Positions 129 through 1,623 of a stretch of 44,890 nucleotides of DNA are shown here, piece by piece. The stretch lies in sequence record PV841871.1; one strand, 5' to 3'. Position 1 is the first letter of the stretch, and the number at the start of each line of letters is the position of its first letter. The DNA is from Escherichia phage Ivi. The notes below the pieces were generated by a model that was not told the DNA's origin, did no database searches, and worked only from the letters and a program-made list of their open reading frames with translations. The position numbers and the translations under genes were made by a program.

Positions 129-248
129 ATGTATAAGTATCTGACGGTTGAGAAACTGGAACAGCTTTATGCTGAGTTGCGAGTTTGCAGTGTATGCAGC
201 GGCGACAACGAGCATGTTTACGGCGAACTGGAGGTAGCTGATGAGTAA
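129..248 (+). CDS. small hypothetical protein (39 aa)
   Basis: ATG 11 nt after a GAGG-type RBS; stop overlaps next start (ATGAGTAA); below ORF-track size cutoff. Confidence 0.3.
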   Translation: MYKYLTVEKLEQLYAELRVCSVCSGDNEHVYGELEVADE

Positions 249-801
249 CAAAAACGAAGTATTCGAGTACCTGATTGACCAACTACGGCAGCAGGTGAAC
301 AACAGCCCGTACAAGCAACAGTGCGAAGACCTGGCGCATGAGGTGCTATCGCTCAAGAATCAGTTACGTGATATGTCAGAGCTGGTTGACGAGTTACGGG
401 GGACGATAACGCTAATGAACGGGGATGTAGAGGCGTACAAAGTTCTACGCAAAGGAGGGTACGTCAATGGGGGTCAGCGTTATGTGGTGGGCGAACATGT
501 GCCCGTGGCAACGGTGAATTGTCGGTGTACCCCGACGCCTGTACCACCAGAACAATCTGGTTGCCGTAAGGAAGATACTCAGTACAACGCCTGGAGGCCA
601 CATTATGGTGCGCGACAACCTGTGCCGGATGGGACTATGGTATTTATCCGGTATCGCAACGGGGAGGAGCCGAAACACAGTGTAGCAGCAGAAAAGCGGT
701 CGTGGATTTGGGATGGAACATACGCAGACATAGTGGAATACAAGATTGACACACAGGAATGTGAACACGAGTGGTATTGGTATAACAGGTGGGTTAAATA
801 A
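241..801 (+). CDS. hypothetical early protein (186 aa), Cys/Trp-rich C-terminus
   Basis: ORF track; shares motifs CRK(E/N)DTQ and TQECxHEW with ORF 1264-1623. Confidence 0.6.
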   Translation: MSNKNEVFEYLIDQLRQQVNNSPYKQQCEDLAHEVLSLKNQLRDMSELVDELRGTITLMNGDVEAYKVLRKGGYVNGGQRYVVGEHVPVATVNCRCTPTPVPPEQSGCRKEDTQYNAWRPHYGARQPVPDGTMVFIRYRNGEEPKHSVAAEKRSWIWDGTYADIVEYKIDTQECEHEWYWYNRWVK

Positions 802-1002
802 ATGACCTCACTACTTTTCATCTGGGCACTGACCGCGGGTCAGTTACAGCTAGCGGCAACAGAAACGTTTTACTCACTGGAGGCGTGCCAGGCTGCGGCA
901 CGCAACGCAGAGAACGCGCACTTCCTGTTTCAGGATAAGCCGATTGATACTGAGGTGCGCGCGACATGTTCAACGAAACGATTAGCTAAGCAGGAGAAAT
1001 AG
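802..1002 (+). CDS. hypothetical small protein with N-terminal hydrophobic segment
   Basis: ORF track; starts 1 nt after the previous stop. Confidence 0.5.
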   Translation: MTSLLFIWALTAGQLQLAATETFYSLEACQAAARNAENAHFLFQDKPIDTEVRATCSTKRLAKQEK

Positions 1003-1003
1003 G

Positions 1004-1267
1004 ATGGTACAGAGATACGAGATAATAAGATGGGGTCTGCCGGAGATGGCTAAGTACCCATACGGTGACTACGTTGAGTATGATAGCTATAAGGAACTGG
1101 AAGACAGTTTCCAGGACTACATAACGACTACGGACATGGAAATAGAAGGGCTTGCGGCGAGACTGGCGGAAGTAAACGCCGAGTTACAGAAATACAAAGA
1201 CCAGTTCCCGGATTACGTCGAGTGCGCGAACTGTGGGTCAGTTACTCATGTGGAAGGGGTGGAATGA
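1004..1267 (+). CDS. hypothetical protein (87 aa), tandem paralogue of the next gene
   Basis: ORF track; N-terminus MVQRYEI and motif AELQKYKDQ are repeated in 1264-1623. Confidence 0.55.
   Translation: MVQRYEIIRWGLPEMAKYPYGDYVEYDSYKELEDSFQDYITTTDMEIEGLAARLAEVNAELQKYKDQFPDYVECANCGSVTHVEGVE
1178..1206 (+). repeat. 29-bp direct repeat (copy 1) inside paralogous genes; copy 2 at 1369-1397
   Basis: gccgagttacagaaatacaaagaccagtt vs gccgagctacagaaatataaagaccagtt, 27/29 identical. Confidence 0.6.
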
Positions 1268-1623
1268 TGGTACAGAAATACGAGGTTCGCGGTACCGAAT
1301 TAGGTGGCGATGCATTCTACGAAGATTGGGTTGAGGTAGTTCGCTACGAAGATTACGCGAAACTCGAAGCCGAGCTACAGAAATATAAAGACCAGTTACG
1401 CGATTCTTCGGTACAGATTAAGGAGATGCAGAAAGATATAGATGAGTTGCAGCGAGAGGTGCAACATAAGACCGAAGCACTAGACTACCTTTACGCAAAC
1501 CAGGTATCGCCAGGGCAATCCGTTTGCCGTAAAAATGATACCCAGGAATGTGCGCACGAGTGGAGTAGGTACATTGTACACCCCTATAGAAAGATATGCT
1601 TGGTATGCGGAGTGAAGGAGTGA
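1264..1623 (+). CDS. hypothetical protein (119 aa), paralogue of 1004-1267 and 241-801
   Basis: ATG at 1264 overlaps the upstream stop (ATGA); the ORF-track start at 1222 is probably an upstream extension. Confidence 0.55.
   Translation: MMVQKYEVRGTELGGDAFYEDWVEVVRYEDYAKLEAELQKYKDQLRDSSVQIKEMQKDIDELQREVQHKTEALDYLYANQVSPGQSVCRKNDTQECAHEWSRYIVHPYRKICLVCGVKE

Follow-up and report, generated by a model that had tools for sequence, protein, structure and literature searches.

Organisation of the A to D locus

The beginning of the Escherichia phage Ivi sequence (PV841871.1; the whole 44,890-bp stretch analysed here is referred to as the window) carries a run of small plus-strand genes, three of which are linked by short motifs that they have in common: open reading frame (ORF) A (241-801, 186 aa), ORF C (1004-1267, 87 aa) and ORF D (1264-1623, 118-119 aa). 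ORF B (802-1002) lies between A and C. The window matches siphophages of the Kagunavirus/Jerseyvirus group (Guernseyvirinae) and looks like an apparently whole, circularly permuted genome of a Kagunavirus-like phage. Comparison with relatives shows that A, C and D occupy two variable positions, here called the A slot and the C slot, and that the proteins encoded there are combinations of cassettes that meet at a handful of conserved junction motifs. We consider it probable that the three proteins belong to a small-protein family that is confined to Guernseyvirinae and evolves by cassette exchange; a function as acidic interference proteins is a more tentative part of the same explanation.

Family profiles connect the genes in pairs. 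ORFs A and D are clear members of phrog_6094 (E=5e-39 over aa 1-114 and E=2.7e-19 over aa 29-119, respectively), and ORFs C and D are clear members of phrog_29624 (E=3.8e-20 and E=1.6e-8). Since ORF D falls into both families, this is a first sign that it is a chimera. The two PHROG entries carry no function and miss the sharing of cassettes between them. ORF D starts with ATGATG, so that the protein begins with MMVQKYEV from 1264 or MVQKYEV from 1267; the second ATG is the start annotated in the closest GenBank relative.

An earlier note on this DNA had pointed to repeats between these genes, and all of them are present. The 29-bp direct repeats at 1178-1206 in ORF C and 1369-1397 in ORF D, which encode AELQKYKDQ, are identical at 27 of 29 positions, and at 39 of 49 when extended to 1166-1214 and 1357-1405. 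C and D also have a common start region (1003-1021 and 1266-1284, 18/19 identical; GATGGTACAGA.ATACGAG). A and D have two modules in common, CRKEDTQ/CRKNDTQ (541-582 and 1504-1545, 32/42 identical) and TQECEHEW/TQECAHEW (742-782 and 1531-1571, 32/41 identical). A self-comparison of positions 1-1700 gave top ungapped diagonals of 23, 16 and 16, compared to a maximum of 13 in 30 shuffles, which exceeds chance. At the protein level, BLASTP of the common patches gave E=3e-5 for C against D and E=2e-4 and 3e-4 for A against D, with no significant similarity for A against C. The two A-like patches are contiguous in ORF D (CRKNDTQECAHEW), while in ORF A they are split by an inserted domain of 58 residues, which itself ends in a repeat of the DTQ junction. 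With the relatives at hand, the repeats seen in the window are cassette junction motifs.

Two slots of cassette-built proteins

The relatives compared comprise 91 clusters of D/C-type homologues, 1,290 clusters homologous to ORF A (the best 120 of which were read) and 40 IMG/VR loci anchored on ORF B, together with GenBank loci. Synteny is constant: the A-slot gene is followed by B, 0-2 C-slot genes, a conserved gene starting MSLATDILK, an optional HslV-like gene and the lysis genes. The A slot always holds one gene and is present in every relative examined. Across these relatives, more than 1,000 protein variants fill the two slots, with heads, coiled coils, zinc ribbons and a W domain as the cassettes and MVQRY, YEDYAKLE, AELQKYKDQ, KNQLRD and EQSGCRKEDTQEC.H.W as the junction motifs.

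All A-slot proteins start MSNKNEVFEYLIDQLRQQ...CEDLAHEV.SLKNQLRD, continue with one of at least 16 middle cassettes and then, after the junction EQSGCRKEDTQ, with one of at least 28 C-terminal arrangements, which consist of 1-3 zinc ribbons of many sequence types (EC.H.W...C..CG) and/or the beta-rich W domain. ORF A, whose best homologue is merely 68% identical, is ordered as conserved N-terminal helices, coiled-coil core, middle cassette, junction, inserted W domain and truncated zinc ribbon. The core helix (aa 28-58, 322-414; CEDLAHEVLSLKNQLRDMSELVDELRGTITL) resembles residues 20-50 of the phage T7 protein gp5.9, as discussed below. The junction KNQLRD (355-372) has its ORF D counterpart in KDQLRD (1387-1404), with a codon identity of 0.835. 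The middle cassette that follows (373-546; MSELVDELRGTITLMNGDVEAYK...NCRCTPTPVP) is one of the exchangeable types defined by clustering and four-gamete counts, and is swapped for an unrelated, shorter one in the closest relative. The second junction (PEQSGCRKEDTQ, 547-582), the repeat partner of 1504-1545 in ORF D, is nearly invariant across A-type proteins.

The W domain of ORF A (583-756; YNAW...DIVEYKIDTQ) is a beta-rich cassette placed between this junction and the zinc ribbon, and ends in the second DTQ. No Pfam family matches the domain, and the PHROGs that do, phrog_9174 and phrog_26870, have no known function; the cassette is also seen in other positions and in C-slot proteins (P0013, P0061). 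What remains of the zinc ribbon (ECEHEWYWYNRWVK and the stop codon, 757-801) has kept the C-x-H knuckle and lost the CxxC half. DNA comparison with the complete ribbon of contig L040 (ECEHEWRFYNKGASMMCKKCGLNK) shows that ORF A is without approximately 26 nt and that the frame is shifted, which places the stop codon immediately ahead of the ATG that starts ORF B. The same truncated end is found in vB_EcoM_SHAK7693 (L001, OR594180.1), the closest GenBank record to the window, and in three metagenomic proteins (P0092, P0094, P0100), and the truncation is therefore not a sequencing error. We note that the name given to OR594180.1 is that of a myovirus and that the record is placed in Autographiviridae/Kayfunavirus; this taxonomy appears to be wrong, because in sequence and gene order the phage is a Kagunavirus-like siphophage.

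C-slot proteins each have a variable head, which begins with MVQRY or a near variant and ends in G.WV.YEDY, followed by a variable tail; at least 17 heads and at least 19 tails can be distinguished. Many of the tails begin with AELQKYKDQ and continue with FPDYVECANCGSVTHVEGVE. ORF C, the first C-slot gene of the window, is assigned by head and tail clustering in addition to its PHROG match, and consists of a head of type H3 (MVQRYEIIRWGLPEMAKYPYGDYVEYDSY), a coil, AELQKYKDQ (the first copy of the junction repeat) and the CxxC tail FPDYVECANCGSVTHVEGVE. It is strongly acidic, with an isoelectric point (pI) of 4.2 and a net charge of -12.

A C-slot head joined to an A-slot tail in ORF D

In the window, the second C-slot gene, ORF D, has the commonest C-slot head and the second copy of AELQKYKDQ. 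Directly after this copy comes the A-type junction QLRD (1393-1404), and from there on the protein consists of an A-slot-type coil, a linker and a complete C-x-H...CxxC zinc ribbon. Linker and ribbon (VSPGQSVCRKNDTQ and ECAHEW...CLVCG, 1504-1611), recognised by motif scan, are the repeat partners of 541-582 and 742-782 in ORF A.

The earlier note had read the repeats as products of a recent local duplication, and this is not supported: both halves of ORF D are far closer to genes of other phages than to A or C of the window. Head and junction are identical at 41 of 43 positions to C-slot proteins of other phages that have quite different tails, compared to 24 of 67 for ORF C. The tail is 52/75 identical to P0007, the A-slot protein of contig L048, whereas ORF A is matched over a 14-residue patch only. 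The same tail is found behind three heads (in the window, L045 and L046), and the head in L045 is that of the window's own ORF C. Conversely, L047 has the ORF D head followed by the coil of the window's ORF A, and P0005 combines the ORF D head and the ORF A coil with a ribbon. Judged by these matches, ORF D is a hybrid that combines the head of a C-slot protein with the tail of an A-slot protein.

In the AlphaFold model of ORF A, helices are predicted at residues 2-20 and 23-59, disorder at 72-114 and a beta-rich domain at approximately 118-170 with a predicted local distance difference test (pLDDT) score of 81-89 (mean over the model 69). In that of ORF D, a helix at residues 27-77 has a pLDDT above 90, the head is poorly predicted and the ribbon forms two short strands (pLDDT 67-79; mean 72). 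With mean scores of approximately 70 and long low-confidence stretches in both models, fold comparison of whole models is weak; a Foldseek search of the ORF A model against the PDB, the sole fold library searched, gave nothing at E<=0.001.

Breakpoints coincide with the junction motifs

Cassette types and four-gamete counts were obtained from a sample of approximately 250 family members. The A slot, with 16 middle types and 28 C-terminal types, shows 56 combinations and 42 four-gamete quartets; the C slot, with 17 heads and 19 tails, shows 49 combinations and 45 quartets. Heads combine with tails, and middle with C-terminal cassettes, in a near-free manner. The module shuffling proposed in the earlier note is thus strongly supported, and is far wider than could be seen from one genome.

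Pairs of close relatives locate the breakpoints. The A middle cassette has near-identical flanks in the window and in SHAK7693, but the sequences between AATCAGTTACGTGAT, which encodes KNQLRD, and CAATCTGGTTGCCGTAAGGAAGATACTCAG, which encodes QSGCRKEDTQ, are unrelated. Phage Snoke diverges from both only past CAGGAATG.GA.CAC (QECEH). Within ORF A itself, the W insert is flanked by the duplicated DTQ junction. The DNA of the motifs is unusually uniform as well: at sites with identical amino acids, codon identity is 0.72-0.91 in the junction motifs, whereas conserved motifs of the holin gene, the endolysin gene and the gene downstream give 0.55-0.66. Of 27 copies of the 27-nt AELQKYKDQ sequence in the fetched loci, 13 are identical to the copy in ORF C. 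Because this DNA is conserved across loci, the 27/29 identity within the window cannot be dated as a duplication. The near-identity of the 29-bp repeat reflects a junction motif kept across the whole phage group.

The anatomy of the proteins, the combinatorial distribution of cassettes and the coincidence of breakpoints with motifs are direct observations. From these we infer that the junction motifs act as recombination joints. Homologous recombination at the motifs would swap cassettes between co-infecting relatives and also between the two slots. In the window, ORF D has a C-slot head joined to an A-slot-type tail at AELQKYKDQ/LRD; ORF A has an inserted W domain at its DTQ junction, and its zinc ribbon is cut short by a 26-nt deletion. 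Some points weigh against a role as joints. No recombination event was directly observed; a control motif outside the junctions, the start of the downstream gene, also has a high codon identity (0.83), although it lies at the edge of the variable region; and protein function alone could account for the conservation of the motifs. Neither a reverse transcriptase nor an invertase that would point to programmed diversification came up in limited Pfam scans; the search was not exhaustive.

Exchange of this general kind has precedents. In T-even phages, segments of tail-fibre adhesins are exchanged at conserved His-box motifs, and lambdoid phages exchange modules at 'boundary sequences'; there as here, short conserved sequences flank variable segments that are swapped between related phages by homologous recombination. 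The present system differs in that the units are intragenic cassettes of approximately 20-60 codons in non-structural proteins, that the junctions measure 15-35 nt and that exchange would also take place between two paralogous slots of one genome. The phenomenon is thus of a known kind, namely modular accessory proteins in a phage hot spot that are exchanged at conserved boundary motifs. What sets this case apart is a cassette system that is fine-grained and in frame and has two slots that interact. We found no description of the A/C/D family in the literature searched.

A possible gp5.9-like core in A-slot proteins

Sequence searches of A, B, C and D against Pfam, NCBIfam and the PDB returned generic coiled-coil noise only. 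When a profile of A-type proteins was compared with the PDB, the T7 RecBCD inhibitor gp5.9 was matched at E=0.026, with EDLAHEVLSLKNQLRDASALVDELQKAL and DSLERENDSLKNQLMEADEYVAELEEKL as the aligned segments. In hhalign, the A core and gp5.9 align with a probability of 96.6% over 31 columns at 39% identity. The score of 37.9 compares with maxima of 14.9 in column shuffles and 30.2 in heptad-preserving shuffles (n=150 each). A gp5.9 hidden Markov model (HMM) run over 793 ORF segments of the window ranked A first, C third and D fourth. The second rank was taken by a short ORF segment at 30358-30495 on the minus strand (LQKRIEELEEEVLRLRQQRDAANAQLAFVLEKL, E=0.063), which adjoins a SNF2-type helicase gene; this match is probably generic coiled-coil similarity.

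T7 gp5.9 is a parallel coiled-coil dimer that acts as a DNA mimic, is braced by a beta-sheet at its N-terminus and has a pI of 4.0 (PMC9836394). The A core aligns to its residues 20-50 (PF25708, phrog_9014, PDB 8b1r) in the same heptad register and with an exact SLKNQL, and is, like gp5.9, an acidic helical segment predicted to form a coiled coil. C-slot proteins share with gp5.9 the arrangement of a short beta-like head followed by an acidic helix. There are also clear differences: gp5.9 has 52 residues, whereas ORF A has 186 and extra domains, and the N-terminal part of gp5.9 with the contacts D4, D11 and D15 has no counterpart in the alignment.

A number of results speak against a relationship with gp5.9. 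Among the RecBCD-contact residues that can be aligned, 3 of 6 are acidic in A (at D21, E36 and E39, and not at E24, D38 and E45). The Pfam family of gp5.9 (PF25708) matched neither A aa 21-70 nor D aa 22-78 at E<=10; phrog_9014 against A(1-70) gave E=0.3 and gp5.9 against phrog_6094 E=0.13, in both cases amid generic coiled-coil noise. The matches listed by tblastn with gp5.9 contained no Guernseyvirinae, and profile comparison with the C-slot core gave no gp5.9 match. The link to gp5.9 thus exists at the profile level only.

All 114 C-slot proteins considered are acidic (114/114; median pI 4.5). ORF D has a pI of 4.5 over aa 1-80 and is acidic over its N-terminal two-thirds, and ORF A has a pI of 4.45 over aa 1-66 and 5.8 overall; linkers and ribbons are neutral to basic. 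Another candidate function, Lar-like restriction alleviation (phrog_3592), was rejected: the match was limited to the coil of D (aa 22-67) at E=0.003-0.005, amid generic coiled-coil matches.

Possible links to Oad2 and to the Old defence

A further lead comes from relatives of the window's C-slot proteins. A 2026 preprint reports Oad2 (HK446 gp27) to be an inhibitor of P2 OLD, relates it to modular proteins of the EaE/Ea22 type, and describes fusions and high modularity for the Oad2/EaE locus (bioRxiv 10.64898/2026.07.10.737580). The C-slot tail of type T8 (P0039, P0055 and L041:2707-2958) is homologous to Oad2 residues 66-114 (22.1 bits, E=7e-6; 999 shuffles gave at most 7.9 bits). This tail has the sequence AELLEIKAAARCLVREASKVY..DVIAPEFVDQQTIYEL, and 2 of the 3 proteins (P0039 and P0055) carry the head of the window's ORF D. 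A likeness between the tail "SPCDWKTDELAREIL" and the Oad2 C-terminus was also considered and is unsupported by the profile test against 999 shuffles. Like Oad2, EaE and Ead/Ea22 of the lambdoid recombination regions, the proteins described here are small, contain coiled coils, are highly modular and are encoded in a hypervariable accessory locus. They differ in belonging to another phage group, and their locus adjoins lysis genes rather than recombination genes. Ead_Ea22 (PF13935) was not among the Pfam matches of A, C and D at E<=1.

The BASEL paper reports that the sensitivity of Kagunavirus phages to Old is variable, and the raw data give efficiencies of plating (EOP) on Old of 0.04-1.4 for Bas70-72, no plaques for Bas73 and 0.003-0.06 for Bas74-76. 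In these seven phages (Bas70-76, contigs L051-L057), a second C-slot gene with the tail ...LRE.AKQV..SPCDWKT.ELAREIL is present exactly in Bas70-72, and thus coincides 7/7 with (near-)resistance to Old. The A gene and the first C-slot gene of Bas71 are near-identical to those of Bas75/76, and the second C-slot gene is the main difference between their loci; Bas71 is further distinguished by an additional small ORF upstream of A, and in Bas76 the first C-slot gene is followed by two unrelated small genes. The genome-reduction paper (CiPGr) included no Guernseyvirinae phage.

Judging from sequence similarity, charge and the plating data, the most likely function of A, C and D would be that of acidic coiled-coil interference proteins directed against host DNA-end processing or defence, on the RecBCD/OLD axis; we hold this assignment tentatively, with the chances somewhat on the negative side. 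On this assignment, the A-slot core would resemble the DNA mimic gp5.9, and the C slot would be a variable counter-defence slot. The three leads (gp5.9, Oad2 and Old plating) bear on the window proteins indirectly, and some observations argue against the assignment. No ORF of the window resembles Oad2 (the best matches, at E=1.2, are unrelated ORFs), and no window ORF is a counterpart of the HK446 OLD trigger gp33. The Old correlation concerns seven related, phylogenetically non-independent phages on two host backgrounds, and the tail type involved has no Oad2 similarity and is absent from the window. The helical part of A-slot proteins, with a family-wide median pI of 5.5, is only mildly acidic.

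RecBCD inhibitors such as Gam and gp5.9 trigger OLD. In a more elaborate scheme, the A-slot protein would be a gp5.9-like coiled-coil DNA mimic. By disabling RecBCD or a similar DNA-end enzyme, it would trigger defences that guard RecBCD, such as P2 Old or retron Ec48; the C slot would supply a rotating library of acidic proteins, some of them related to Oad2, that neutralise these guards; and the junction motifs would be built-in joints through which a phage population reassorts heads, coils and zinc ribbons in frame. As a complete paired system, this is a speculative proposal that we regard as rather unlikely.

Alternative explanations

The modular anatomy could be accounted for in other ways. 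If the genes had arisen by a recent tandem duplication in the window genome followed by rapid divergence under diversifying selection, the 29-bp stretches would be leftovers, and three adjacent genes would be expected to have common in-frame motifs, as they do, with 76-95% DNA identity over 19-49 nt. Outside the motifs, however, A and D are approximately 27% identical and the heads of C and D are barely alignable, and the two halves of D have their closest matches in other phages (41/43 and 52/75, compared to 24/67 and a 14-residue patch within the genome). The same motifs occur with the same codons across the whole phage group, and the two-slot arrangement is kept in dozens of relatives. A recent duplication is therefore largely refuted, and we give it hardly any weight; diversifying selection on host-interaction proteins, which formed part of the same proposal, is plausible and compatible with the indirect leads on function. 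A more serious alternative is that the motifs are kept only as functional elements of the proteins, for instance as a coiled-coil trigger or a first zinc knuckle, while illegitimate recombination takes place anywhere and selection retains only in-frame products in which the motifs are kept. The DNA identity at the motifs would then be a by-product and not a substrate for exchange. The motifs are indeed nearly invariant as protein, EC.H.W clearly makes up one half of a metal-binding site, the helix predicted with the most confidence contains KNQLRD, and the control motif at the start of the next gene is high in codon identity too. It is harder to see on this account why synonymous sites in the junctions are more uniform than those in essential-gene motifs of the same loci (0.72-0.91 versus 0.55-0.66), why the breakpoints between near-identical genomes fall exactly at the motifs and why a duplicated DTQ junction bounds the W insert of ORF A. 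We regard conservation for protein function alone as improbable, and favour exchange at the junction motifs.

With regard to function, the proteins might be zinc-ribbon DNA-binding regulators rather than interference proteins, for example activators of lysis, packaging or structural operons in the manner of P2 Ogr and P4 Delta. Their genes lie directly upstream of lysis and morphogenesis genes, A-type genes are found in all relatives examined, and C-x-H...CxxC ribbons occur in D and in most A-type relatives. The ribbon motif is present in D (CAHEW...CLVCG) and most relatives, with the second knuckle missing in ORF A, and Pfam zinc-ribbon models are weakly matched by relatives (DZR at E=0.005 for P0046). 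An essential regulator would not be expected, however, to show such variation (0-3 ribbons, with more than 15 sequence types among them) or loss of the ribbon, and the ribbon-truncated form of ORF A persists in several phages. C-slot genes can be wholly absent, and no regulator family in Pfam, NCBIfam or the PDB was matched. A regulatory role is thus very unlikely, and interference on the RecBCD/OLD axis is the function that we prefer.

Neighbouring genes and expression

A run of small plus-strand genes at the end of the window (43588-44802) continues across the boundary into the A to D region. A terminator-like hairpin (44844-44865, plus strand) splits this run from the A to D operon, and a terminator is annotated at the equivalent position in Snoke. 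The operon begins with a small acidic ORF (129-248, plus strand, 39 aa, pI 4.4) that contains a CxxC motif, overlaps the start of ORF A and has an annotated homologue in Bas74, followed by A, B, C and D. ORF B (66 aa, plus strand; phrog_3766, E=1.7e-29) is a conserved gene between two hypervariable slots, with 75-95% identity across the 40 IMG/VR loci. Its N-terminus is hydrophobic and resembles a signal peptide (MTSLLFIWALTAGQLQLAA), and it has two conserved cysteines; the protein may be located in the membrane or the periplasm.

Downstream of ORF D are a 63-aa gene (1596-1787), a gene for an HslV-like peptidase (1768-2205), two holin genes and an endolysin gene. The 63-aa gene, on the plus strand, overlaps the end of ORF D by 28 nt and is a short variant of a conserved 97-aa protein (phrog_9632, MSLATDILKRSG...); it matches only the first approximately 20 residues of the profile, the C-terminal half present in most relatives having been replaced. 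The window phage and some of its relatives have the HslV-like gene (phrog_1040, plus strand) upstream of the holins; many others, among them AV104, K1G and Bas70-72, lack it. Elsewhere, the window codes for a PD-(D/E)XK nuclease of the phage's own and for an Enc34-type single-stranded DNA-binding protein, which are likely the phage's recombination module. A gene resembling HNH-AP2 homing endonucleases (36914-37435) sits between the DUF2800/PD-(D/E)XK nuclease gene (37402-38658) and the gene for the Enc34-type protein (36201-36827), all on the minus strand.

Directly upstream of the operon, at 68-100 on the plus strand, lies a promoter-like element of approximately 33 nt, (C)TTGCAC-N10-AATAGGnTACTATTCA (also written TTGCAC...TACTATTCA). 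The window has four copies (68-100 and 43525-43557 on the plus strand; 10816-10848 and 20010-20042 on the minus strand), each followed by a ribosome-binding site and an ATG within approximately 20-40 nt; for the 20-nt core, four occurrences compare with none expected by chance. The copies precede the first plus-strand gene at the divergent control region, the A to D operon and two minus-strand genes. In the element, TTGCAC may be taken as -35-like and TACTAT as -10-like, with a spacer of 17 nt between them. It is kept at both plus-strand positions in most related loci, and one copy is annotated as a PHIRE 'phage promoter' in phage fBC-Eco01. A scan of 1-3400 for the sigma-70 consensus found no promoter, and no terminator is predicted between the A to D operon and the lysis genes. 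Early or middle expression of the operon would fit, because its promoter type is common to genes beside a helix-turn-helix (HTH) regulator. The transcriptome paper on Kagunavirus K1B4 names few genes and does not give the temporal class of the A to D genes.

Significance of the locus

The locus is an unusually clean case of domain-level mosaicism, in which well over 1,000 variants are built from limited cassettes and a handful of motifs within a conserved genome of 42-45 kb. The junction motifs could serve as anchors for cataloguing the cassettes and for annotating genes that are now all listed as "hypothetical protein". These phages are readily grown and the BASEL collection already includes some of them, and many anti-defence functions are now being traced to small hypervariable phage genes. 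If the leads to gp5.9 and Oad2 are true, the family would provide the first candidate RecBCD inhibitor and anti-OLD factors for Guernseyvirinae, and the variable sensitivity of Kagunavirus phages to Old would gain a testable genetic basis.

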